NCBI RefSeq assembly: GCF_003334815.1 | Contig: NZ_QOWO01000009.1 | DNA: 64,000 bases | From: Escherichia coli | Lineage (GTDB): Bacteria > Pseudomonadota > Gammaproteobacteria > Enterobacterales > Enterobacteriaceae | Strand: one strand, 5' to 3' | Part shown: one piece after another, positions 5,642 to 39,674 of the stretch | Layout of the letters: each line of letters begins with the position of its first letter | How positions within the stretch are numbered: position 1 is the stretch's first letter | Position numbers and translations under genes: made by a program | The notes under the pieces: generated by a model | The model's input: the letters and a program-made list of their open reading frames with translations, nothing else | What the model was told of the DNA's origin: nothing | The model's database searches: none

Positions 5642-5658
5642 AATTGGTCTTACCAATT
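5642..5658. promoter_or_regulatory. PdhR operator palindrome aattggtcttaccaatt in the pdhR promoter/leader
   Basis: Perfect inverted repeat ATTGGT-N3-ACCAAT about 30 bp upstream of the pdhR start codon; matches the known PdhR box. Confidence 0.7.
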
Positions 5659-20227: not shown

Positions 20228-21166
<939 letters not shown>

Positions 21167-21245
21167 CTATCCAACCGAAGTGTACTATACATTCGGCGGG
21201 CCAGTTTAGCACAAAGAGCCTCGAAACCCAAATTCCAGTCAATTC

Positions 21246-22397
21246 TTAATCAGCTTGCTTACGCAGGAATGCTGGGATATCCAGATAATCCGGCTCTTTC
21301 GCAGTTTGCGGCGCATTGTCATTCACGACTTTAGCAACCGGCTTCTGCTCCTGGGTCAGCGGAGCCATCCCATGCTGCTGGTAGCGATCCATCACTGGCT
21401 GCTGAACCTGCTTATTGGTCACCAGAGTGATTTCAGGACGTTTGTCCATGCCGATACCTGTCGCAACAACGGTTACGCGCAGCTCGTCATTCATATCCGG
21501 GTCAAGAGAAGTACCGATAACCACAGTCGCGTTGTCGGAAGCAAATGCACGGATGGTGTTACCTACCGTTTCGAACTCATCCAGACGCAGGTCGAAGCCC
21601 GCCGTGATGTTAACCAGCACGCCGCGCGCGCCAGACAGGTCGATATCTTCCAGCAGCGGAGAAGAGATAGCCATTTCAGCAGCTTCTTCCGCACGGTCTT
21701 CACCGCTCGCCACGCCAGAACCCATCATTGCGTAGCCCATCTCAGACATTACGGTGCGTACGTCTGCAAAGTCCACGTTCATCAAACCCGGACGAGTAAT
21801 CAGTTCAGCGATACCTTGCACAGCGCCTTTCAGTACATCGTTCGCTGCGCCAAACGCATCCAGCAGGGAGATACCGCGGCCCAGAACTTTCAGCAGTTTG
21901 TCGTTCGGGATAGTGATCAGAGAGTCCACATGCTTGGACAGTTCAGTGATCCCCTGCTCCGCGAATGCCATACGCTTCTTGCCTTCAAAGTTGAAAGGCT
22001 TAGTGACGACAGCAACGGTCAGGATACCCAAATCTTTTGCCACTTCAGCGACGACTGGTGCTGCACCTGTACCGGTACCACCACCCATACCCGCAGCAAT
22101 AAAGACCATGTCTGCACCTTCCAGCGCCGCACGCAATGCATCGCGATCCTCATCAGCCGCATTGCGGCCAACTTCTGGATTAGCGCCAGCGCCCAGTCCT
22201 TTGGTGATACCGCTACCGATTTGAATCGTCTGTCCAACCGCTGTTTTACGCAGCGCTTGTGCATCGGTATTTACCGCGAAGAATTCAACACCTTCAATGC
22301 GCTCGCGCACCATGTGTTCAACAGCATTACCGCCGCCGCCGCCGACGCCGATGACTTTAATCACCGCGTCATTGGTAAGTTCCATTGGTTCAAACAT
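21246..22397 (-). CDS. ftsZ: Cell division GTPase FtsZ (383 aa)
   Basis: Tubulin signature GGGTGTG, N-terminus [26 protein letters not shown]. Confidence 0.98.
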
Positions 22398-22457
22398 AGT
22401 TTCTCTCCGATTTGTGCCTGTCGCCTGAGGCCGTAATCATCGTCGGCCTCATAAAAA

Positions 22458-23720
22458 TTAAAACTCTTTTCGCAGCCAACTATTGAGTCGCTTGATCCAC
22501 GAGCCAACTGATGCTGTAACACGTTTTTCTACTTCAGCTTCACCGTTAAGATGTGACTCTTTCCCATAGTGAAGCAATCCCACCGCCGTCGAATAATACG
22601 GCTCCTGAGCATAATCCGTTAAACCGGTAATGTTCAGCGGCGCGCCGATACGCACTTGCGTATGAAACACGCGCTGAGCACAGGCTGCAAGACCTTCGAT
22701 CTGCGCTGCGCCACCGGTTAATACAATGCCTGCCGCCAGGTGATGTTTAACCCCTTGTTGGCGAAGCTTTTCCTGCAACTGCAATATCTCTTCGTTGACC
22801 AGGTTGAGCAGCTCGGTATAGCGCGGCTCGATCACCTCTGCCAGTGTCTGACGTTGCAGACTCCGTGGCGGACGACCACCTACGCTCGGCACTTCCACGC
22901 TCTCATCTTTTCCAACGATGGAACCCAGCGCACAACCGTGGCGAACTTTAATCGCTTCGGCGTCGCTTGGCGGCGTGCCAAAGGCGTAAGCGATATCACT
23001 GGTCACGACATTGCCAGCATAAGGAATTACCTTAGTGTGGCGCAATGCCCCACCGGTATAAACGGCGATATCCATTGTACCACCACCGATATCGACGACG
23101 CAGACACCCAGTTCACGTTCATCTTCCGTCAATACCGAATAACTTGATGCCAGTCCGGCAAATATCAGTTGGTCAACTTTCAGCCCACAACGTTCAACCG
23201 CTTTGACGATGTTTTTCGCCATATCGTTGTGACATGTGATCAGGTGCACTTTTGCCTGCATCCGCACGCCCGAAAGTCCTACCGGATTCTTGATCCCTTC
23301 CTGATAGTCAATCGCATACTCTTGCGGGATCACATGCAGCACACGATGCTCATCGCGCACACGCACCGATTTCGCGGTATGGACGACGTTTTCCACATCT
23401 TCTTGCGTCACTTCTTCTTCAGAAATAGGCACCATACCAATTTCATTCTGGCAGCTGATGTGCTTACCAGAAAGCGCCAGATATACCGAAGAGATCTGAC
23501 AATCTGCCATCAATTCTGCCTGGTCAATGGCGCGTTGTACGCACTTGACCACGGATTCGAGGTCGTTCACCCCGCCTTTATCCATACCACGCGACGGGCA
23601 GCTGCCCACGCCAATGATATTGACCATACCGTCGGGCAGAACTTCCCCTACTAAAGCGGCAACCTTCGCGGTACCAATCTCCAGTCCTACTACCAGTTTT
23701 CTGTCCGTCGCCTTGATCAT
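22458..23720 (-). CDS. ftsA: Cell division protein FtsA, actin-like ATPase (420 aa)
   Basis: ORF track 420 aa; overlaps ftsQ stop by 4 bp. Confidence 0.97.
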
Positions 23721-24547
23721 TGTTGTTCTGCCTGTGCCTGATTTTGTTGCTGAGTAGATTCCTCTGGCGGCAAGGGCGCCCAGCCTACTGCCGCTCCAGA
23801 GTCATAACGCAAATCAACGTAGCTAATCCGTTTGCCATCGGTTTGCGCCTGCTGCTGTAAAACCGGATAAAGTTCTACAAAGCGAGCCAAACGTTTCATC
23901 GTATCGCCCCGGCCAAGATTGAGCTTAATATCGTTATTCAGCGTCAACTGCCAGGAACGCCGCGCGGTCATCGCCGCTTCCTTCAGAGTAAATCTGTCCT
24001 TTGCCAGCATCTGCCCCATTTCGCGATAGCCCTGCAACACTTCATTGGCGCTGCCTTCCGGGCCATACAGCATTGGAAGCACCTGCTTGCTGGTGCGTTC
24101 TGGCGGCACGCTGAAGGTATTTCCTTCCGCGTCTACCATATGTTGATCATTCCACCGCGCAATCGGCACATATTCAACCAGATGAATCTTCAATTCATCA
24201 GGCCACTGCTTTCTGACGCTCACCTGCTTAATCCACGGCAGGCGTTGTTCTATTTGCGTCTGGATGATGTTGACATCCTGGGTCATAAAGGTACCCGGCT
24301 CACCCAATGCCAGGATCGACTGCCGGATATCGTCATTACGTGTGTAATGGCGTTCACCGGTCAACACCAGCTTTGAGAGCGGCAGGCGTTGCGCATCTTC
24401 CATCCAGCCCAACACGACCCAGCCGCTCACCAACACTGTCGTTAAAACGGTCAGCAGGAAAAGGATCCCCGCCAGACGCGTTCCATTATTGCGGCGAGAA
24501 GAAACCTCTTCTTCGCTGTTTCGCGTGTTCAGAGCAGCCTGCGACAT
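23717..24547 (-). CDS. ftsQ: Cell division protein FtsQ (276 aa)
   Basis: ORF track 276 aa, single TM then POTRA-like region; position ddlB-ftsQ-ftsA. Confidence 0.95.
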
Positions 24548-24548
24548 A

Positions 24549-26937
<2,389 letters not shown>

Positions 26938-26990
26938 TCTTTACGCCATTAACTTCTTAAATTCATACGATGCAAAAGGCATCGCTACAA

Positions 26991-28058
26991 TTACGCCCGG
27001 GCAACCCGGCTCACTTCATTTGCCACTCGCTCGGTGGCATCCGGAATGGATGCAGCGCGGGCGCGTTCTGCCATGGTTAATAAGGTTTCTCGCGACCACC
27101 CGGCCAGGGTGTTGGCGACAGCATCCACGCTAAGCTGTGGCTGCTCGATAATTTTGGCTGCGCCCGCTTTTTCCAGCGGTAGCGCATTCCAGTATTGCTG
27201 GCGGTCTTTATGTTGAAACGGCACAAACAACGCCGGTAGTCCTGCCGCGGCGATTTCACTCACCGTTAACGCACCGGAGCGGCAAACGACGACATCCGCC
27301 CACGCATACGCCGCCGCCATATCATCAATAAATTCCGTCACTTTATGCTGCGGTTGCCCCGCTTCGGCATACGCCTGTTCAACGGATTGTTGCGAACCTT
27401 TGCCGCTCTGATGCCAGATAGTGACTGAATCACCCAGTTTCGCAGCAACCTGCGGCATTGTCTGGTTAAGAATGCGTGCGCCCTGAGAACCACCCACTAC
27501 CAGCACACGAACCGGACCTTCACGTCCAGCCAAACGTTGCTGCGGCAACGGCAGCGCCAACACATCGGTACGCACCGGGTTACCCACTACTTCCGCATTA
27601 GGGAAAGCACCTGGAAACGCCTGCATCACTTTGGTGGCAATCTTCGCCAGCCATTTATTGGTTAAGCCCGCAATACCGTTTTGTTCATGAAGTACAACCG
27701 GAATGCCTAACGACCACGCGGCCAGACCACCTGGACCTGACACGTAGCCTCCCATACCGAGCACCACGTCAGGTTTGTACGCTTTCATAATCGCCCGCGC
27801 CTGACGCCAGGCGTTGAAGATACGCAGCGGGGCAGCTATCAGTGCTTTTATACCTTTTCCACGCAGACCAGAGATACGAATGAAATCAATTTCGATGCCA
27901 TGTTTTGGCACTAAGTCCGCTTCCATACGGTCGGCAGTCCCCAGCCAGCGAACTTGCCAACCCTGAGCCATTAGATGGTGCGCAACCGCCAGTCCCGGGA
28001 ATACATGTCCACCGGTTCCGCCTGCCATCACCATTAATCGCTTTCCTTGACCACTCAT
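26991..28058 (-). CDS. murG: Undecaprenyl-PP-MurNAc-pentapeptide GlcNAc transferase (355 aa)
   Basis: ORF track 355 aa [26 protein letters not shown]. Confidence 0.97.
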
Positions 28059-29299
28059 CGTGAACCTCGTACAAACGCCTGCGCTTTCTCCAGACGCGTT
28101 TCATAATCAATACGCAACAGCATCATGATGGCTGTCGACATAATCAGTAAGCTCGAACCACCGTAACTGATCAGCGGCAATGTCAGACCTTTGGTCGGTA
28201 ACATCCCCGCCGCCGCGCCTACGTTAACCAGCGCCTGGAAGCTAAACCAGATGCCAATAGAACAGGCGAGAAAACCGGAAAAACGGTGGTCAATTTCTAA
28301 TGCTTTACGGCCAATCGACATCGCGCGAAAAGCGACGAAGAATACCATTAAAAGTGCCAGCACCACACCGACATACCCCAGTTCTTCGCCGATAATGGCG
28401 AAAATAAAGTCAGTGTGCGCTTCCGGCAGATACTCCAGTTTTTGTACCGAGTTACCTAAACCTTGCCCCCAAAGTTCGCCGCGACCAAACGCCATCAGCG
28501 ATTGCGTTAACTGATAGCCGCTGCCAAAGGGATCTTCCCACGGGTTCCAGAATGCGGTAACACGGCGGATACGGTACGGTTCGGCGAGTATCAGCAACAC
28601 AACCGCTGAAATGCCCATACCGATAATGGCAATGAACTGCCACAATTTCGCTCCCGCCAGGAACAACATCGCCAGCGTAGTCACAAACAACACCACCACC
28701 GTACCAAGGTCTGGCTGTGCCAGCAGTAACACTGCCAACACCAGAATCACGCCCATCGGTTTCAGGAAGCCGCGCAGGTTATTACGTACTTCGTCGCCTT
28801 TACGCACCAGATAGTTGGCGATATAGCAAAACAGCGACAGTTTTGTCAGCTCCGCAGGCTGGATACGCAGCAAACCGAGATCGATCCAACGCGATGCCCC
28901 TTTAACCGAGCTACCCACTACCAGGACGATCATCAGCAGGATGATAGATCCGAGCAGCATCGTGGCACTGTAGCGTTGCCAGAACTCCATCGGCAGACGC
29001 AGCGTAATGATCGCCAGAATAAACGCCAAAATCAGATAGACACCATCACGCTTCGCGAAGAAGAACGGATCGTTGGTTAAGCGTTGCCCTATGGGCATTG
29101 ACGCCGAGGTCACCATGATAAAGCCAATCGCCGCGAGGCCGAAGGTCAGCCACAGTAAGGTGCGATCGTACATGATCAGGCTGTCGGTATCTTTTTCCCG
29201 CGAGCCCATCACCCAGCCCTTTAGCGCCGTGGAGATCCAGACCAGGATACTGAATCCTGGCAGGCGCGGCATTTTCAGGCGAGGGAGAGATAAACGCAT
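28055..29299 (-). CDS. ftsW: Peptidoglycan glycosyltransferase / lipid II flippase FtsW, SEDS family (414 aa; an in-frame ATG one codon upstream at 29302 is also possible)
   Basis: ORF track; polytopic membrane protein; overlaps murD stop and murG start. Confidence 0.95.
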
Positions 29300-30615
29300 C
29301 AACCTAACTCCTTCGCCAGACGGGCAAACTCATTGCCTCGTTGTTCAAAGTTCTTGAACTGATCAAGGCTGGCACAGGCTGGGGAGAGCAGAACCATATC
29401 GCCCGGCTGAACACGCGGAGCCAGCAAGCGCATCGCCTGTTCCATAGTTTCGGTTTGTTCTGCCACTTCCGGGCGTAGCGCCGCCAGCTGCGCGCCGTCA
29501 CGACCGAAACAATACAGACGTACGTTATCGCCATTCAGGTAACGCGCCAGTGGGCTAAAGTCCGCCGATTTACCATCGCCACCCAGCAACAAATGCAGTG
29601 TGCCGTCTACGTGCAGGCCATTCAGCGCCGCTTCCGTACTGCCGACGTTGGTCGCTTTCGAATCGTTAATCCAACGTACGCCGTTATGCTCCAGCACAAC
29701 TTCAAAGCGATGCGGCAGACCAGTGAATGTGGTTAACGCTTTCAGGCTGCTGGCACGCGGTAACCCTGCAGCATCTGCCAGCGCCAGCGCCGCCAGCGCA
29801 TTGGTGTAGTTATGCTGCCCGGAAAGTTTCATCTCTTTCACATTCAGCACTTTCTCGCCTTTAACCCGCAGCCAGGTTTCGCCCTGCTGATGATTCAGGT
29901 GATAGTCACCCATGTTGACGCCAAAGCTGACGCAGCGTTCATCCGCACCGCGAATCGGCATTGTTAAGGCATCATCAGCATTAACCACGCAAACTTTCGC
30001 GTTTTCGTAAATGCGCAGTTTTGCTGCACGATACTGTTGTAAACCAAACGGATAGCGATCCATATGATCTTCAGTCACGTTCAGAATGGTCGCTGCTACC
30101 GCCTGTAAGCTGGAGGTGGTTTCCAGCTGGAAGCTCGACAGTTCCAGCACGTACAGTTCACACTCATCATCCAGTAGCATCAACGCAGGCAGGCCAATAT
30201 TGCCACCCACACCAACGTTAACCCCCGCCGCTTTCGCCATTTCACCCACTAGCGTGGTGACCGTGCTTTTGCCGTTAGAACCGGTAATCGCCACAATCGG
30301 TGCTTGTGCTTCGCGACAGAACAGCTCGATATCGCCAACGATTTCGATTCCGGCATCAGCGGCAGCGCTTAAGGATGGATGCGCCAGTGCAATACCGGGA
30401 CTGGCGACAATCAGATCTGCCGCCATCAGCCATTCATCATTCAGACTGCCCGTGTGGCGTTCTACGGCTTCGGGTAATTTATCCAGGCCAGGCGGTGTCA
30501 TACGCGTATCCATAACGCGCGGCGTCACACCGCGAGCGAGGAAAAAGTCCACGCAGGAAAGCCCGGTGAGGCCCAGGCCGATAATGACGACATTTTTACC
30601 CTGATAATCAGCCAT
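29299..30615 (-). CDS. murD: UDP-N-acetylmuramoylalanine--D-glutamate ligase (438 aa)
   Basis: ORF track 438 aa [25 protein letters not shown]. Confidence 0.97.
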
Positions 30616-30617
30616 GA

Positions 30618-31700
30618 TTAACGTACCTTCAGCGTTGCCAGACCAATCAGAACCAGCATCAGCGAAATAATCCAGAAACGCACAATGACGCGCGGTTCCG
30701 GCCAGCCTTTCAGTTCATAGTGGTGATGAATCGGTGCCATGCGGAAAATACGTTGTCCGCGCAGTTTAAAGGAGCCGACCTGCAGGATGACAGAAAGCGT
30801 TTCTACCACGAACACGCCCCCCATAATCACCAGCAGGAATTCCTGACGTAGCAGTACGGCGATAATGCCTAACGCACCACCTAACGCCAGCGAACCTACA
30901 TCGCCCATAAAGACCTGCGCCGGATAGGTGTTAAACCACAGGAAGCCCAGTCCTGCCCCGACTATCGCGGTACAGACAATAACCAGTTCCCCGGCGTGTC
31001 GCAGATACGGTATATGCAAGTAGCTGGCAAAGTTCATATTGCCGGTCGCCCACGCCACCAGCGCAAAACCACCGGCGACAAATACGGTCGGCATAATTGC
31101 CAGGCCGTCGAGACCATCGGTCAGGTTTACCGCGTTGCCAGTACCCACAATGACGAAGTAAGCCAGCAGAATGTAGAACAGCCCCAGCTGCGGCATCACA
31201 TCTTTAAAGAATGGGACCACCAGCTGCGTTGCGGGCGTGTCTTTGCCGGCAAGGTACAGGGCGAAGGCGACACCCAGCGCAATGACCGACATCCAGAAAT
31301 ACTTCCAACGAGCGATCAACCCTTTGGTGTCTTTACGCACCACTTTGCGATAATCATCAACAAAGCCAATAACACCGTAACCTACCAGCACCACCAACAC
31401 GCACCAGACGTACGGATTGGACGGGTAAGCCCACAGCAGTACGGAGATCACAATCGCCGTCAGGATCATAATCCCGCCCATGGTCGGCGTACCGCGCTTG
31501 CTGAAGTGTGATTCAGGACCGTCGTTACGCACCACCTGACCAAAGGAAAGTTTTTGCAAATGAGCAATCATACGCGGGCCCATCCACAATGAGATGAACA
31601 GCGCGGTCAGCAGGCTGACGATGGCGCGAAACGTCAGATAGGAAAAGACGTTAAAGCCGGAATAATATTTGACCAAATGTTCGGCCAGCCAAACTAACAT
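30618..31700 (-). CDS. mraY: Phospho-N-acetylmuramoyl-pentapeptide transferase (360 aa)
   Basis: ORF track 360 aa [27 protein letters not shown]. Confidence 0.97.
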
Positions 31701-33052
31701 GTCCCATTCTCCTGTAAAGCGCGTACTACCTCTTCCATGGCGGCACTACGTGAACCCTTAACTAAAATCGTAATTACCTGTTGCTCAGCAATCAGTAATT
31801 TAAGACGCGTAATTAACGCAGTTTTATCAGCAAAATGTTCGCCAACGCCGCTGGCGGTGCTGATAGCATGGCTTTGTTTACCCACGCTTAACACGCGGTC
31901 AATACCAGCAGCTTTTGCCGCCTCGCCCACCTGTACATGGCAGGCTTCGCTTTCAGCGCCCAGTTCCGCCATATCGCCCACCACCAGCACGCGGTAGCCC
32001 GGCATTTCAGCCAGTACCTGGACTGCTGCAGTCATTGAACCGACATTGGCGTTGTAGGAGTCGTCGAGCAGCAACTGGTTTTCTGCCAGTTGGATGGGGA
32101 ACAGACGGCCTGGAACAGCTTTCAGATTTGCCAGCCCCGCTTTGATAGCATCAAGCGTTGCGCCCACGGACATGGAGAGCGCAGCGGCTGCCAGCGCATT
32201 CGCAATATTGTGACGCCCCGGCAACGGCAGCAGAACATCGACGCTACCGGTTGGGGTTTGTAGGGTAAATTCCGTACCGTGCGAGGTCACATGGATATTG
32301 GTGGCGGTGAAATCGCTGTTGGCGGCATTGGGTGAGAAACGCCACACTTTGCGTGAGCCAATTACGCTCTGCCAGTTCAGCCAGTCGTTGTTGTCGGCGT
32401 TCATAATGGCGATACCGTTTTCCGGCAGGCCGCTAAAGATTTCACCTTTCGCTTTCGCGACACCCGCAAGCGAGCCAAAACCTTCCAGATGCGCCGCTGC
32501 CAGGTTGTTGACCAGCGCAGCTTCCGGGCGAGTCAGACTCACAGTCCAGGCTATTTCGCCCTGATGGTTCGCGCCAAGTTCAATAACTGCGTAATCGTAT
32601 TCCGGCGTTAAGCGCAACAGCGTCATCGGTACACCGATGTCGTTGTTGAGATTGCCTGCCGTATAAAGCGTGTTGCCGCACTGGCTTAAAATCGCCGCCG
32701 TCATCTCTTTAACGGAGGTTTTGCCGGAGGACCCCGTCAGAGCAACCACGCGCGCCGGAACTTGCTGGCGAACCCATGCAGCCAGTTCACCAAACGCCAG
32801 ACGCGTATCCTTGACGATTAACTGCGGCAGGTCGATGTCCAGCGGACGGCTAACCAGTAGTGCGCCTGCGCCGCCAGCTTTCGCCTGGTCGGCAAAATCG
32901 TGGGCATCAAAACGTTCGCCTTTCAGGGCAACAAACAGGCAGCCCGGCGTCAGTTTTCGGGTATCAGTGGTTACAGCATCAAGGGTGATATCTGCACCTT
33001 GCAGTTCACCGTTGAGAATGTCGGTAAGTTGGCTAAGGGTTACGCTAATCAT
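31694..33052 (-). CDS. murF: UDP-MurNAc-tripeptide--D-Ala-D-Ala ligase (452 aa)
   Basis: ORF track 452 aa, Mur ligase motif TGSSGKTS. Confidence 0.97.
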
Positions 33053-34536
33053 GCAATCACCCCCAGCAGACGCGCCACCGTGACGCGATCGGAGTAGTCC
33101 AGACGCTGATTGCCAACAATCTGGTAATCTTCATGGCCTTTGCCCGCGACCAGTACCACATCATTCTCTTTAGCCTGCATAACGGCGCAAGTCACCGCTT
33201 CAGCACGGCCTTCCATCACTTTGGCATGTCCGGCATCTAACATTCCCGCCAGAATATCGTTGATGATGGCACGCGGTTCTTCGGTACGCGGGTTATCGTC
33301 CGTCACCACCGCCACGTCAGCAAACTCTTCGGCAATTGCGCCCATCAGTGGACGCTTACCTTTATCGCGATCGCCACCACAGCCAAAGACACACCACAGC
33401 TTGCCCGCACAGTGCAGACGCGCCGCCTGTAAGGCTTTTTCCAGTGCATCCGGCGTATGCGCGTAATCCACCACCACCGTCGGTTTGCCTGGCGCAGTGA
33501 ACACTTCCATACGTCCGCAAACCGGTTGCAGACGCGCGGCGGTTTTCAGCAGATCAGCCAGTGGATAGCCGAGTGCCAACAGTGTCGCCAGCGCGAGCAG
33601 CAGGTTGCTGACGTTAAAAGCGCCCATCAGATGGCTTTCAATTTCGCCATCGCCCCAACTTGAGCTAAAGCGAATCGTCGCACCGCTGTCGTGATAGTTC
33701 ACTTCGGTCGCTTTCAACCAGCGTCCGTGACAGTTCGGATTAATATGATCTTCCATTGATACCGCAACCGCGTCCGGCAGTTTTGCCAGCCAGCGGCGGC
33801 CCACTTCATCGTCGGCGTTAATAATCGCCTGACCGCAATGATGCTCAGAATAAAGCAGCCATTTCGCGGCTTCGTAGTGTTCCATATCACCATGATAATC
33901 AAGGTGATCGCGGCTTAAGTTGGTAAAGACCGACGCCGCAAATTTCAATGCCGCCACACGGTGCTGTACCAGCCCGTGGGAGGAAACTTCCATTGCGCAA
34001 AACGTCGCGCCCTGATCCACCAGCCCCGCCAGCTCATGCTGAACATCGACTGCCGAACCGGTTGTATTTTCTGTCGGGATCACTTTCCCCAGCAGGCCGT
34101 TACCAACGGTGCCCATTACCGCGCTGGTTTCGCCAAGCAGTTGGCTCCACTGCGCCAACAGCTGGGTAGTCGTGGTTTTGCCGTTGGTGCCCGTTACGCC
34201 CACGAGACGTAAATTGTCAGAGGGTTCATGGTAAAAGCGGCCCGCCAGTGCAGATAAACGCTCGTTGAGCTGGCTGAGATAGATGACCGGTACGCCGTGC
34301 ATTTCACGGATTTCACCATCGGTCGCCTCATCTTTCGCCTCTGCAATAATGGCAGCCACACCTTGCGCTATCGCCTGCGGGATATATCGACGCCCGTCCG
34401 CCTGATGACCTACTACAGCTACAAAGAGATCGCCCGCCGCAGCCACACGGCTGTCGAGTGTCATCTCTCGCAGTGCTCGCGAAGGTGCGTCTGGCACCCA
34501 CGGAGCAAGAAGGTCGCGCAAATTACGATCTGCCAC
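33049..34536 (-). CDS. murE: UDP-MurNAc-L-Ala-D-Glu--meso-diaminopimelate ligase (495 aa)
   Basis: ORF track 495 aa, Mur ligase motif TGTNGKTTT. Confidence 0.97.
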
Positions 34537-36289
34537 CTGTCCCCTCGCCTTGATTAATCACAAATTCATTTTTATCGCCCGTTGTCAGCGCATCCGGCTC
34601 GATGTTCATGGTACGCAATACGCCGCCCATGATGGCACCAAAGACCGGCGCGGAAACGGCGCCGCCGTAGTATTTACCCGCCTGCGGATCGTTGATAACA
34701 ACAACCAGCGCGAAGCGCGGCTGACTCGCAGGCGCAACGCCTGCGGTATAAGCAATATATTTATTGATGTAGCGACCGTCCGGCCCGACCTTTTTCGCGG
34801 TACCGGTTTTAATGGCGATACGATAGCCTTTAATCGCCGCCTTCACGCCGCCGCCGCCTGGTAGCGCCACGCTTTCCATCATATGCACCACAGTGCGGAC
34901 AATGGATTCCGGGAAGACACGTTCACCGGGAACCGGGGGGTCAACTTTGGTAATCGACAGTGGGCGATAAATGCCGTAGCTGCCGATAGTTGCGTAGACT
35001 CGCGCTAACTGTAATGGTGTTACCATTAGCCCGTAGCCGAAAGAGAAGGTGGCCCTCTCTATGTCAGACCACCGTTGTTTTTGAGGATATAAGCCACTGC
35101 GTTCTCCGACCAACCCCAAATTGGTCGCTTTTCCCAGTCCAAAACGTGAGTAAGTATCTACTAACGCTGAGGACGGCATCGCTAACGCCAGCTTGGAAAC
35201 ACCGACGTTACTCGACTTCTGTAATACCCCGGTCAGGGTTAATTCGCTGTAGCGTGCCACGTCTTTGATTTCGTGGCCGTTAATTCGATAAGGAATGGTA
35301 TTGAGTACCGAGTTTTCCCGCACCACGCCACGTTGCAACGCGGTCATTACCACCATCGGTTTAACCGTTGAGCCCGGTTCAAACACGTCGGTGATGGTAC
35401 GGTTACGCATCGCCTCTTTCGGCGTGCCGCTCAGATTGTTAGGGTTGTATGACGGGCTGTTAGCCATCGCCAGCACTTCACCGGTGTTGACATCCACCAG
35501 CACGGCGCTACCAGATTCAGCCTTGTTAAAGGCCACCGCGTTGTTCAGTTCGCGATAAACCAGCGCCTGCAGGCGTTCATCAATACTCAGCGCCAGGTTG
35601 TGCGCTGCCTGGCTGTCAGTAGAAGAAATATCTTCAATTACGCGACCATAGCGGTCTTTACGCACAATGCGCTCACCCGGCTGCCCGGTAAGCCATTTAT
35701 CGAAACTCTTCTCAACGCCCTCAATCCCTTGACTATCGACGTTAGTAAAGCCGATGAGGTGAGCAGTCACTTCGCCGGACGGATAGTAACGGCGAGACTC
35801 TTCACGCAGATGAATCCCCGGCAGTTTCAGTTTTTTGATGTAGTCCGCCATGTCAGGGTTCACCTGACGCGCCAGATAAATAAAGCGCCCTTTCGGGTTG
35901 GCGTTAATGCGGGCTGAAAGCTGATCCAGCGGAATATTGAGCGCGTTAGCCAGCGCCTTCCAGCGGTCACCGACGCTGATACCGCCAGCGTCATGCACTT
36001 CTTTCGGGTCAGCCCAAATCGCTTTTACCGGCACGCTCACCGCTAACGGGCGACCAGAACGGTCAGTAATCATGCCGCGGGAGGTGGAAACTTGCTGAAC
36101 GCGAAGAGAACGCATGTCGCCCTCTTTCACCAGCATATCCGGGGAGATAACTTGTAACCACGCTACGCGTCCGAGCAGAAAAGCCAGCGCCAGGAGAATA
36201 CAGCCGCATAACAACGCAAAACGCCAACTGATAAAGTTGGCATGTTCTTCCTGACGTTTTGGTTTCTGCGTTTTCGCCGCTGCTTTCAT
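34523..36289 (-). CDS. ftsI: Peptidoglycan D,D-transpeptidase FtsI / PBP3 (588 aa)
   Basis: Penicillin-binding motifs STVKP, SSN, KTGTA present in translation. Confidence 0.98.
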
Positions 36290-36304
36290 GCGTCGCGTTT
36301 ATCC

Positions 36305-36670
36305 TTATTTTTGCACTACGATATTTTCTTGTGACGGATCAACATGCTGCATTTGCAGCTTTTCCGTGGCGATCCTTTCCACCCGGCTATGGTCGCCGAG
36401 CGCATTCTCTTCAAGGATCAGGTTGCGCCATTCAATGTCTAAAGCATCTCGCTCCAGCACCAGTTGTTCGCGCTGAGCGGTCAGTAAACGGGTATGGTGC
36501 GCCGTGGTTACCACAGTCACCGCCGTCAAAATAATGCAAATGAACAGGCAGAGTGGCAGCTTCCCAAATCGCAAAAGATCGTCACCGATAACACCAGGCA
36601 ATGCATGGCGCTCGTGGCTTCCCATCGATCCTTTAACTTTGCTTAGAGCTTCTGTCACTCTGCTGATCAT
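36305..36670 (-). CDS. ftsL: Cell division protein FtsL (121 aa)
   Basis: ORF track 121 aa [27 protein letters not shown], single TM + coiled coil. Confidence 0.95.
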
Positions 36671-37608
36671 GCATTCGTCCTCTCTGCAATACGCAGAACT
36701 GAACTACGGGCACGAGGGTTCTCAGCCACCTCTTCTTCGCCCGGCATTAACTTGCCTAGTGCTCGCAGCTGACGGCCACCCAGTTTTTTGAGCTGCTCTT
36801 CAGTCATCGGTAACCCTGCCGGAACTTGCGGACCGCGGCTGTTTTCACGCATAAAACGTTTCACAATACGGTCTTCCAGCGAGTGGAAGCTGATGATCGA
36901 AAGCCGCCCACCCGGGGCCAGCACGTTGAGCGAGCTTTTTAGCGCCTGCTCTATCTCCTCCAGTTCACTGTTTACCCAAATGCGCACCGCCTGGAAGGTA
37001 CGGGTCGCGGGATGTTTAAACTTATCTTTCACCGGCGTTGCAGCAGCCACGACTTCCGCCAGTTCTTTGGTGCGGGTCATCGGCTGTTCGCGGTTACGCT
37101 CGACAATGGCGCGGGCAATGCGTTTGGCAAAACGCTCTTCACCATAGGTTTTCAATACCCAGGCGATATCGGCTTCTTCTGCGGTTTGTAGCCATTCAGC
37201 GGCTGACTGCCCACGGGTTGGGTCCATACGCATGTCCAGCGGACCATCGCGCATAAAGGAAAAGCCACGTTCAGCATCATCAAGTTGCGGTGAAGAGACG
37301 CCAAGATCGAGGAGAATGCCGTCGATCTTGCCGATAAGATCGCGCTCGGCAACGTATTCGCCCAGCGCGGAGAAAGGTCCGTGGATGATGGAGAAGCGCG
37401 GATCATCAATAGTCTTCGCAACGGCGATAGCCTGCGGGTCGCGATCGATCGCCAGCAAACGCCCCTCTTCGCCAAGCTGCGAGAGGATCAGACGTGAGTG
37501 ACCACCGCGACCAAAAGTCCCATCAATGTAGATGCCATCAGGACGGATATTGAGGCCATTAACGGCTTCATCCAGCAGCACCGTAGTATGTTTATAGTTT
37601 TCCATCAT
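36667..37608 (-). CDS. rsmH: 16S rRNA m4C1402 methyltransferase RsmH/MraW (313 aa)
   Basis: Canonical start [19 protein letters not shown] 43 codons inside longest ORF; SAM-MTase. Confidence 0.94.
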
Positions 37609-37609
37609 T

Positions 37610-38068
37610 TTATAGAGACAAGTCCTGCAGTCGCTCCGATAAGTCTCCGGTAGCCAACTGCTCTGCGTCGATATCTTCCTTGACCTGTTGATGCCAGGTT
37701 GTTTCATCCCACAGCTCAAACTTGTTGAACTGTCCAACCAGCATCACTTCTTTTGTCAGCCCGGCATGTTGCCGCAGTACTGGCGCGATTAACAATCGAC
37801 CTGCGCCATCCATCTGACATTCGCTGGCATGACCTAACAGTAGGCGCTGCACACGGCGCTCAACCGGGTTCATGCTCGACAGACGCGATAATTTTTGCTC
37901 GATAATTTCCCATTCAGGCAGGGGGTAAAGCAGCAGGCACGGGTGATAAATGTCAATGGTGCAAACCATTTGACCGGCAGCGTTCTCAAGCAGCTGTTCC
38001 CGATAACGGGTAGGCACTGATAAGCGCCCTTTGCTGTCGAGATTGACTAACGTTGCTCCCCGGAACAT
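37610..38068 (-). CDS. mraZ: Transcriptional regulator MraZ (152 aa)
   Basis: Canonical start [19 protein letters not shown]; first gene of dcw cluster. Confidence 0.94.
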
Positions 38069-38079
38069 GCCAGCCTCAC

Positions 38080-38150
38080 CCCTTATTCCCACTTTGCCCC
38101 ACAATTTCCCACTGAAAGGAGTTTACGGAGCTGAGGAAAAGCTTGTCAAG
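38080..38150 (-). promoter_or_regulatory. Pmra promoter (-35 TTGACA at 38145-38150, -10 TAAACT at 38120-38125, minus strand) with three 10-bp-spaced GTGGG(A/G) direct repeats (38087-38112) = MraZ operator
   Basis: Direct reading: rc gives TTGACA-N18-TAAACT followed by gtgggaaattgtggggcaaagtggga. Confidence 0.7.
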
Positions 38151-38625
38151 CCAGTCACAAGGCATACCGAGGTAAAAAACCCGATGTTTACGGCTAATAT
38201 CAGCGTTGTTTATTTTACGTCCAACGTGCGAAGCAAATTAACGTTATGAATAGCTGTAAGAAAAAATCCCTCATCGTCATCACCGTTTTAAAATGACTCA
38301 CTATTTTCCACAGCAAATATAAAGTGTCAGTTTGCGACGCGAGCGGCATTTTAGGACATATCTTCCCCGGTTAACAGTCCTTGTTACGTCTGTGTGGCGC
38401 TTGATGCCAGCGGGTTTGCGCAAAAGCAAAGAAAAGTGTTTGTTAAATCGGCAATTCATCGCCGCATGTAACAAAATAATGCAAAAACGCGCTGTCGATA
38501 TCACTTAATTATTGTGAATTTCAGCTGGTGAGTTAATTAACGGGCGGGTTTAAAAGCATTTATCAATAATAGTCAGGAATAGTCTTATTTACTTTAAGCA
38601 TATTGATGTCCAGTCCCGTACTCTA

Positions 38626-38660
38626 CGCGCCAGAGGGAAATTCACCTGGCGCGTATTTTT
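38626..38660 (+). terminator. Hairpin cgcgccag-N12-ctggcgcg followed by tattttt on the plus strand, just 3' of cra (cra is on the minus strand)
   Basis: 8-bp GC stem with T-run on plus-strand side only; orientation fits a plus-strand transcript or a bidirectional terminator. Confidence 0.4.
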
Positions 38661-38669
38661 GTTCGCGGC

Positions 38670-39674
38670 TTAGCTACGGCTGAGCACGCCGCGGCGATAG
38701 AGATTACGTTTAATGCGCGTTAAACCAGGTTTTGGCTTACGCGGTTCGTCCAGGCTTGCCAGGACAATCTCCAGCACACGCTCTGCGACATCGCGGTGAC
38801 GTTGAGCCACTGCCAGCACCGGACACTGTAAGAAGTCGAGCAGTTCGTTATCGCCAAAGGTGGCAATTGCCAGGTCAGAAGGCAGTTTGCCGTCGCGACG
38901 CAGCGTGACATCCATCACTCCTTGCAACAACGCAAACGACGTTGTGAACAGCGCCTGCGGCATCGGATGCGTTTCCAGCCATTTTTCGAATAACTGGGCA
39001 GCCGCCTCCCGCTCATAGCTGTTGGCATACAGGAAATGCACTTCGCGCGGATCATCTTTCCAGGCAGTACGGAAACCTTGTTCACGCAGGAAGCTGACAG
39101 AAAGCTCCGGTAGCGCACCAAGATAAAGCACCGTCTCGGCGGGAAACTTACGTAACTCTTCCGCCAGCATTTCGGCATCATCCTGATCGGCACCAACCAC
39201 GCTGGTGAAGTGTTCACGATCGAGGGCGCGGTCCAGCGCGACAATCGGGAACGGGTCGTTAGCCCAGCGTTGATAAAAAGGATGCTCAGGAGGCAACGAC
39301 GTCGAAACAATAATGGCATCAACCTGACGCTGTAAAAGGTGCTCAATGCACCGCATTTCGTTGTCTGGCTGATCTTCTGAGCAGGCAATCAGCAGTTGAT
39401 AACCCCGTTGCCGCGCCTGGCGTTCAAGATAGTTAGCGATGCGGGTATAGCTGGTGTTCTCCAGATCGGGGATCACAAGACCAATAGAACGTGTGCGTCC
39501 AGCACGAAGCCCAGCTGCCACGGCGTTCGGGTGGTAATTGTGCTCACGCACCACAGCCATGACTTTTTCAACGGTTTTGTCGCTCACACGGTATTGCTTC
39601 GCTTTGCCGTTAATAACATAGCTTGCAGTGGTCCGCGACACTCCCGCCAGCCGAGCGATTTCATCCAGTTTCAC
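38670..39674 (-). CDS. cra: Catabolite repressor/activator Cra (FruR), LacI family (334 aa)
   Basis: N-terminal [27 protein letters not shown]. Confidence 0.97.

Follow-up and report, generated by a model that had tools for sequence, protein, structure and literature searches.

Pmra, the sigma-70 promoter heading the Escherichia coli dcw cluster, and its three-box MraZ operator

Gene order and setting of the dcw cluster

The window, by which we mean the whole 64,000-nucleotide stretch of E. coli DNA analysed here, carries on its minus strand the genes mraZ, rsmH, ftsL, ftsI, murE, murF, mraY, murD, ftsW, murG, murC, ddlB, ftsQ, ftsA, and ftsZ, in that order, and cra lies upstream of mraZ at 38670-39674. 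Pmra and its MraZ operator, which occupy the cra-mraZ intergenic region next to mraZ, form a textbook regulatory node, the transcription entry for the septum and cell-wall genes. The initial annotation had described an unbroken minus-strand run from mraZ to ftsZ, and this holds for the gene run itself, which extends from 38068 to 21246 (16,823 bp) with gaps of at most 60 bp. The transcription unit, however, continues beyond ftsZ. The lpxC gene (21145-20228) begins 100 bp past ftsZ and is followed by a hairpin and T9 terminator at 20201-20149, and the unit ends after lpxC rather than ftsZ.

The locus is nearly indistinguishable from that of the reference strain. Over the 1.1 kb around Pmra the identity to E. 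coli K-12 MG1655 is 100%, and 5,424 of 5,426 complete E. coli genomes contain this segment; a longer comparison with NC_000913.3, of 18,301 bases starting upstream of mraZ and ending past lpxC, finds a difference at one position. This mismatch falls at 34127, where murE codon 137 reads ACC (Thr) in the window and ATC (Ile) in the reference. Positions were converted between the two sequences by subtracting the window position from 127702 to give the K-12 position. The K-12 annotation also places a small RNA, FtsO, inside ftsI (35044-35217, minus strand) and an antisense RNA, StfZ, across the ftsA-ftsZ junction (22203-22754, plus strand), so annotated RNA regulators are present in the dcw cluster as well. 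The coordinates of the promoter, operator, and gene features are collected in Table 1.

Table 1. Features of Pmra, its operator, and the genes downstream. Coordinates refer to the window; positions relative to the start site take +1 as 38113.
Feature	Coordinates	Strand	Evidence or remark
-35 hexamer TTGACA of Pmra (mraZ1p), -36 to -31	38144..38149	minus	Perfect consensus; invariant in 81/81 Enterobacteriaceae species
Promoter spacer AGCTTTTCCTCAGCTCCG, 18 nt	38126..38143	minus	Length 18 in 81/81 species; consensus AGcTTTTCCtccgCTCCG
-10 hexamer TAAACT, -12 to -7	38120..38125	minus	100% conserved in all species; placement fits the mapped start
Transcription start, A 38113 (K-12 89589) or G 38112 (K-12 89590), 45-nt leader	38112..38113	minus	Two published maps
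MraZ box 1, GTGGGA, +2 to +7	38107..38112	minus	GTGG core invariant; GTGGGA in 74/81 species
MraZ box 2, GTGGGG, +12 to +17	38097..38102	minus	Preceding TT and GTGG core invariant in 81 species
MraZ box 3, GTGGGA, +22 to +27	38087..38092	minus	Preceding AAA and GTGG invariant; last two bases vary
Degenerate unit in phase with the boxes, GGGGTG, +32 to +37; overlaps the ribosome-binding site and is probably no true fourth box	38077..38082	minus	Departs from the repeat pattern at two positions
Shine-Dalgarno GAGG, 5 nt before ATG	38074..38077	minus	Sequence read; 88-99% conserved
mraZ, 152 aa, repressor reading the boxes	37610..38068	minus	TIGR00242, 227 bits against a cutoff of 98
Cluster downstream of mraZ	20228..37608	minus	ORF layout; K-12 annotation; 1 mismatch in 18,301 bases to NC_000913.3

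Promoter anatomy and transcription start

Read along the minus strand, Pmra consists of TTGACA, an 18-nt spacer, and TAAACT, and is followed by CCTTTCA, box 1, AATT, box 2, CAAA, box 3, ATAAGGGGTGAGGCTGGC, and the ATG of mraZ. The initial annotation had given this promoter and the three repeats before mraZ exactly to the base. In a scan with a sigma-70-like consensus, Pmra matched at 10 of 12 positions and was the top match both in the intergenic region and across the 18.8-kb cluster.

The position of the start site rests on published maps. Kim et al. (2012) reported a mraZ transcription start at K-12 89589, supported by 29 reads and giving a 45-nt UTR; the upstream sequence listed in that study ends in TAAACTCCTTTCA, which places the start at window position 38113. 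The same study reported an equivalent mraZ start position in K. pneumoniae, also with a 45-nt UTR. Cappable-seq, which selects triphosphate 5' ends, gives a start at K-12 89590 (window 38112) with a score of 27.2, the strongest of the four Cappable-seq starts in the cra-mraZ intergenic region. Both mapped starts lie 7-8 nt past TAAACT, within the 6-8 nt expected of a sigma-70 promoter, and the 18-nt separation of the hexamers falls in the usual 16-18 nt range. With +1 at 38113 the ATG stands at +46. A start mapped elsewhere would have spoken against the promoter proposed from the sequence; the maps instead give 38113/38112.

A passage in a secondary source gives the mraZ leader as 38 nt. With a leader of that length, transcription would begin at 38106, 14 nt beyond TAAACT, in conflict with the 45 nt of both maps. 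The agreement of two genome-wide maps on a 45-nt leader that fits the -10 hexamer, unlike the often-quoted 38 nt, is a point that the present analysis adds.

Additional starts on the mraZ strand have been published. One lies inside mraZ at K-12 89701 (window 38001; 23 reads) and was assigned to rsmH, and weak Cappable-seq starts occur at K-12 89783 (window 37919), 89143 (38559), and 89237 (38465). A literature search on the names of secondary mraZ promoters found nothing relevant.

Three boxes at a 10-bp period

The three boxes repeat with a period of exactly 10 bp, and box 3 ends 18 nt before the mraZ ATG (38068-38066). The pattern GTGGGR-N4-GTGGGR-N4-GTGGGR occurs once in the 64-kb window with both strands counted, against an expectation of 0.00 from 100 dinucleotide shuffles, and the looser GTGG-N6-GTGG-N6-GTGG likewise occurs once, against 0.01 expected. 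A repeat finder run without a prior pattern returned AGTGGGAA twice, 20 bp apart. Tandem Repeats Finder gave no report at the boxes, which form too short an array for it and are separated by spacers that differ too much. The fourth in-phase unit was considered as a further MraZ box and rejected; it is common in species with a short leader, but outside Buttiauxella it is lost where the leader carries the 10-bp insertion described below.

Two aspects of the geometry needed adjustment. The repeats had been placed on the same helical face, which is approximately right, as the 10.0-bp period set against ~10.5 bp per turn makes the boxes drift by ~34 degrees over three units. They had also been described as lying between the promoter and the start codon. 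Their position is correct, but the boxes begin at +2 and thus fall in the initially transcribed region, under the polymerase footprint.

The site has the sequence features by which an MraZ operator is recognised. Such operators have three or more direct repeats built on a GTG(G/T) core and spaced by ~10 bp from core to core, with six bases between the 4-nt cores, and here three GTGG cores follow one another at exactly 10 bp; the boxes are located just upstream of mraZ, downstream of the -10 hexamer, and overlap or abut the transcription start; the gene that comes next encodes the cognate MraZ, in which both DXXXR motifs and the basic residues for DNA contact are present; and the boxes are under purifying selection relative to the flanking DNA.

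Conservation across Enterobacteriaceae and within E. coli

We compared the mraZ loci of 80 other Enterobacteriaceae species with that of E. coli, giving a set of 81. The genome scan took in MraZ proteins at least 88% identical, and the matches listed by the protein search were all at least 84% identical. Both hexamers, TTGACA and TAAACT, recur in every one of the 81 species with 18 nt between them, as do the three GTGG cores with their 10-bp period, so that the repeat spacing, which the initial annotation had singled out for comparison across the family, proved constant throughout. The consensus of the box region over the 81 species is GTGGgaatTTGTGGgnnAAAGTGGnn, where capitals mark invariant positions. 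The third unit varies outside E. coli, where it reads GTGGTG, GTGGTA, GTGGCG, or GTGGAG; GTGGGA at this position is found only in E. coli among the 81 species. The repeat had been written as GTGGG(A/G), which is accurate for E. coli itself, whereas the unit conserved in the 81 species is GTGG. The comparison thus defines the true conserved unit as (TT/AAA)GTGG, with a strict 10-bp period and locked to the -10 hexamer rather than the start codon.

This registration is seen in the distances on either side of the boxes. The gap between the -10 hexamer and box 1 is 7 nt in 73 of the 81 species and 6-8 nt in all of them, while box 3 lies 17-19 nt from the ATG in 61 species and 26-28 nt from it in 20. 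Because the gap to the -10 is fixed while the distance to the ATG shifts, the boxes are anchored to the promoter and not to the start codon. In a column-by-column profile the block from 38153 to the ATG stands out against an adjoining upstream region whose identity to E. coli is only 40-65%. An insertion of ~10 bp is present between box 3 and the Shine-Dalgarno sequence in 20 species (Buttiauxella, Cedecea, Kosakonia, and others), for example GAAAGGGGAATTTAAGGGTGAGG, and it looks like a duplication of one 10-bp unit.

Within E. coli, the -10 hexamer, boxes, and leader are identical in 4,835 of 5,424 genomes. The variants sampled affect 38132, in the spacer, and 38114, and leave the boxes intact. 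At 38132 the A of the window and K-12 corresponds to C in O157:H7, O104:H4, other E. coli, and every other genus. Position 38114, one base before the start site, is a C/T polymorphism. One complete genome, that of E. coli WS3294A (NZ_CP035819.1), lacks the 5 bp CAGTG equivalent to 38110-38114, and with them the start site and half of box 1, its first half; either the strain is a natural operator mutant or the assembly is in error.

These comparisons bear on the proposal that the repeats are a functionless product of chance or slippage, or that they serve another regulator such as PdhR. PdhR has been reported to give a 1.7-fold ChIP enrichment and a very weak gel shift on a mraZ operator fragment. 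A neutral origin is excluded by the zero chance expectation together with GTGG cores that are invariant in 81 species beside scrambled flanks. As to PdhR, no match to its box ATTGGTNNNACCAAT with up to three mismatches is found in 38069-38669; the nearest lies inside mraZ at 37955-37969, and the total of such matches in the window is at the level of chance. We assign either form of this proposal a near-zero probability. A perfect PdhR box, ATTGGTCTTACCAAT, is located at 5643-5657 (K-12 position about 122,050). On the K-12 map it stands just upstream of pdhR, and it is probably the operator of pdhR itself.

Repeats as protein-binding DNA or as structured nucleic acid

The boxes are rich in guanine, and expression could in principle be set by a G-quadruplex, formed in the non-template strand or in the mRNA leader, instead of by MraZ binding, a role that has been suggested for S. 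aureus PmraZ. The E. coli sequence GGG-N7-GGGG-N6-GGG-N5-GGGG at 38110-38079 does match the canonical four-tract motif with loops of 1-7 nt. A quadruplex at the S. aureus mraZ promoter has been characterised biophysically by authors who claim that G-quadruplex-forming motifs are conserved in Gram-negative bacteria. Both MraZ and this proposed S. aureus quadruplex have come under discussion as targets for antibacterials. Among the 81 Enterobacteriaceae species, however, the canonical motif is present in one, E. coli; it is absent from the others because their third unit is GTGG(T/C/A)N. The window as a whole contains three such motifs against 1.9 expected, which is no enrichment. When the leader was folded with an algorithm that allows quadruplexes, the minimum-energy structure did not contain one, and the isolated segment reached only -2.0 kcal/mol. 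The conservation of GTGG together with the preceding TT or AAA fits read-out by a protein rather than a quadruplex. We regard control by a quadruplex as very improbable. The 81-species result qualifies the published claim for Gram-negative mraZ promoters and adds the observation that the canonical motif at this promoter is peculiar to E. coli within the family.

All three repeats are transcribed (+2 to +27), and they might accordingly act in the RNA, as part of a structured or protein-bound leader that controls the translation or stability of the mraZ message. The leader with 30 nt of coding sequence folds no better than its shuffles (z = -0.22), with the repeats predicted to be unpaired, and the leader has no match to an Rfam family. 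Moreover, the repeats keep their register with the -10 hexamer but not with the translation signals: in 20 of the 81 species the Shine-Dalgarno sequence and the ATG are displaced by a further 10 nt. We therefore find control through the RNA scarcely credible.

MraZ and its proposed action at Pmra

The gene immediately downstream of the boxes encodes MraZ (TIGR00242). Its two DXXXR motifs lie at residues 11-15 (D11-R15) and 87-91 (D87-R91), and D11, K13, R15, D87, and R91 align with D11, K13, R15, D82, and R86 of the M. genitalium protein. The match between E. coli MraZ and the chains of the M. genitalium structures is distant, with an E value of about 1e-11. In the M. genitalium MraZ-DNA complexes solved by cryoEM, one subunit occupies each GTG(G/T) box and inserts a beta-sheet cradle in the major groove. 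Residues K13, R15, and R86 contact the bases, and K13A, R15A, and R86A each abolish binding. The same structures indicate that the MraZ ring must open for adjacent subunits to reach successive boxes.

For E. coli, binding and repression by MraZ at these boxes are taken second-hand from the literature. Papers citing Eraso et al. (2014) relay that E. coli MraZ binds the repeated sequence and represses Pmra. Citing papers also state that MraZ reduces expression from mraZ to murC and that the R15A substitution abolishes the lethality of MraZ overproduction. The protein is reportedly a dodecamer.

Taken together, the anatomy and conservation of the promoter, the mapped starts, the identity of the downstream gene, and the reported repression identify the site as Pmra (mraZ1p), the sigma-70 promoter that heads the dcw cluster, combined with an operator through whose boxes MraZ represses its own synthesis. 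We put the probability of this reading at about 0.93. A promoter with an MraZ operator at the head of dcw had been proposed from the sequence, and that assignment is borne out. The element is real and already known, and the overall picture of it is unchanged. The further suggestion that it is the control point for the whole cluster was overstated, as the reported repression runs from mraZ to murC and further promoters within dcw are described in the literature.

A plausible sequence of events can be outlined. RNA polymerase would engage TTGACA-N18-TAAACT and initiate at 38113/38112. Adjacent MraZ subunits would each insert their beta-sheet cradle, with K13, R15, and R91, in one of three successive major grooves, and an MraZ oligomer would bind the three boxes cooperatively on roughly one face of the DNA. 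The opening of a dodecameric E. coli MraZ onto three boxes is extrapolated from the Mycoplasma structures. Because boxes 1 and 2 lie inside the polymerase footprint, bound MraZ would obstruct the polymerase, presumably by steric occlusion, and it may do so at polymerase binding, open-complex formation, or promoter escape. Since mraZ is the first gene transcribed, such repression would amount to negative autoregulation and would at the same time reduce expression of the division and cell-wall genes nearest the promoter.

Comparison with other mraZ promoters

The E. coli K-12 Pmra (Hara 1997; Mengin-Lecreulx 1998; Eraso 2014) has the same DNA, gene order, promoter, and repeats as the window, and the element itself shows no difference. 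At 38132, in the spacer, the window has the A of K-12, most E. coli lineages having C instead.

A parallel outside the family is that of B. subtilis, where Pmra, as in E. coli, has three GTGG-core hexamers at a 10-bp period upstream of mraZ. The B. subtilis repeats, three copies of GTGG[A/T]G separated by 4-nt spacers, differ in having A or T as the fifth base rather than the G of E. coli, and the operon is shorter, comprising mraZ-mraW-ftsL-pbpB. Deletion of the three repeats in B. subtilis abolishes repression by MraZ, and the repeat triple occurs once in that genome. Co-expression of MraW does not rescue MraZ toxicity in B. subtilis, unlike in E. coli.

The M. genitalium operator, known from cryoEM (9qlr, 9qlg, 9sx6), resembles that of E. 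coli in that transcription starts inside or at box 1, and its contact residues K13, R15, and R86 are conserved in E. coli MraZ. It contains four boxes as opposed to three, and free M. genitalium MraZ is octameric where the E. coli protein is reportedly dodecameric. In B. cenocepacia, PmraBc also has repeats with a GTG motif, situated downstream of the -10 and overlapping the start site, and the fragment is shifted by MraZ. This promoter departs from E. coli in its four 7-nt repeats with 3-nt spacers and its 100-nt leader, and no active internal promoters were detected in the B. cenocepacia cluster, unlike that of E. coli.

Conserved sequences in the spacer and upstream of Pmra

Promoter spacers normally vary freely in sequence. 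At Pmra most of the 18 spacer bases are invariant across the 81 species (AGcTTTTCCtccgCTCCG), and most species have a tandem CTCCG-CTCCG. Further upstream, two islands on the minus strand of the cra-mraZ intergenic region are conserved. The first, island A, at about 38319-38377, reads CTGTTAAC and then TGTCCTAAAATGCCGCTCGCGTCGCAAACTGACACTTTATATTTG, and is 90-100% conserved in the 81 species. Within it lies TAAAAT (38353-38348), which resembles a -10 hexamer and is followed after ~6 nt by a Cappable-seq start (K-12 89360, window 38342, score 9.4). Island A looks like a conserved distal promoter reading towards mraZ, one that carries no annotation. The second, island B, spans 38229-38264, reads TTTTTCTTACAGCTATTCATAACGTTAATTTGCTTCG, and includes the perfect palindrome TAACGTTA at 38246-38239; it is 95-100% conserved and may be a protein-binding site. 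A small ORF in island B (38280/38274 to 38215, M(TM)RDFFLQLFITLICFARWT) was also considered, but an in-frame ATG is missing from more than half of the species, and the stops vary. The ORF was accordingly rejected: the peptide is only apparent, and it is the DNA that is conserved.

Because the spacer and the first bases after the -10 are invariant and two islands upstream are conserved amid scrambled DNA, it is conceivable that the dcw control region takes inputs beyond a sigma-70 promoter and three boxes. These could be a factor that reads the spacer, or a conserved distal promoter and operator from which a leader of ~274 nt would run into mraZ. We consider such additional inputs rather doubtful. 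An Rfam search of the DNA upstream of Pmra gave no match at E values up to 1, the predicted fold of RNA transcribed from 38342 to 38160 is no more stable than those of shuffled sequences (z = 0.00), and no terminator-like sites occur in 37900-38800. The cra stop codon is closely followed, at 38624-38655, by a perfect inverted repeat with 10-bp arms (TACGCGCCAG / CTGGCGCGTA) around a 12-nt loop; no T-run comes after it, and it may be the 3' end structure of the cra transcript.
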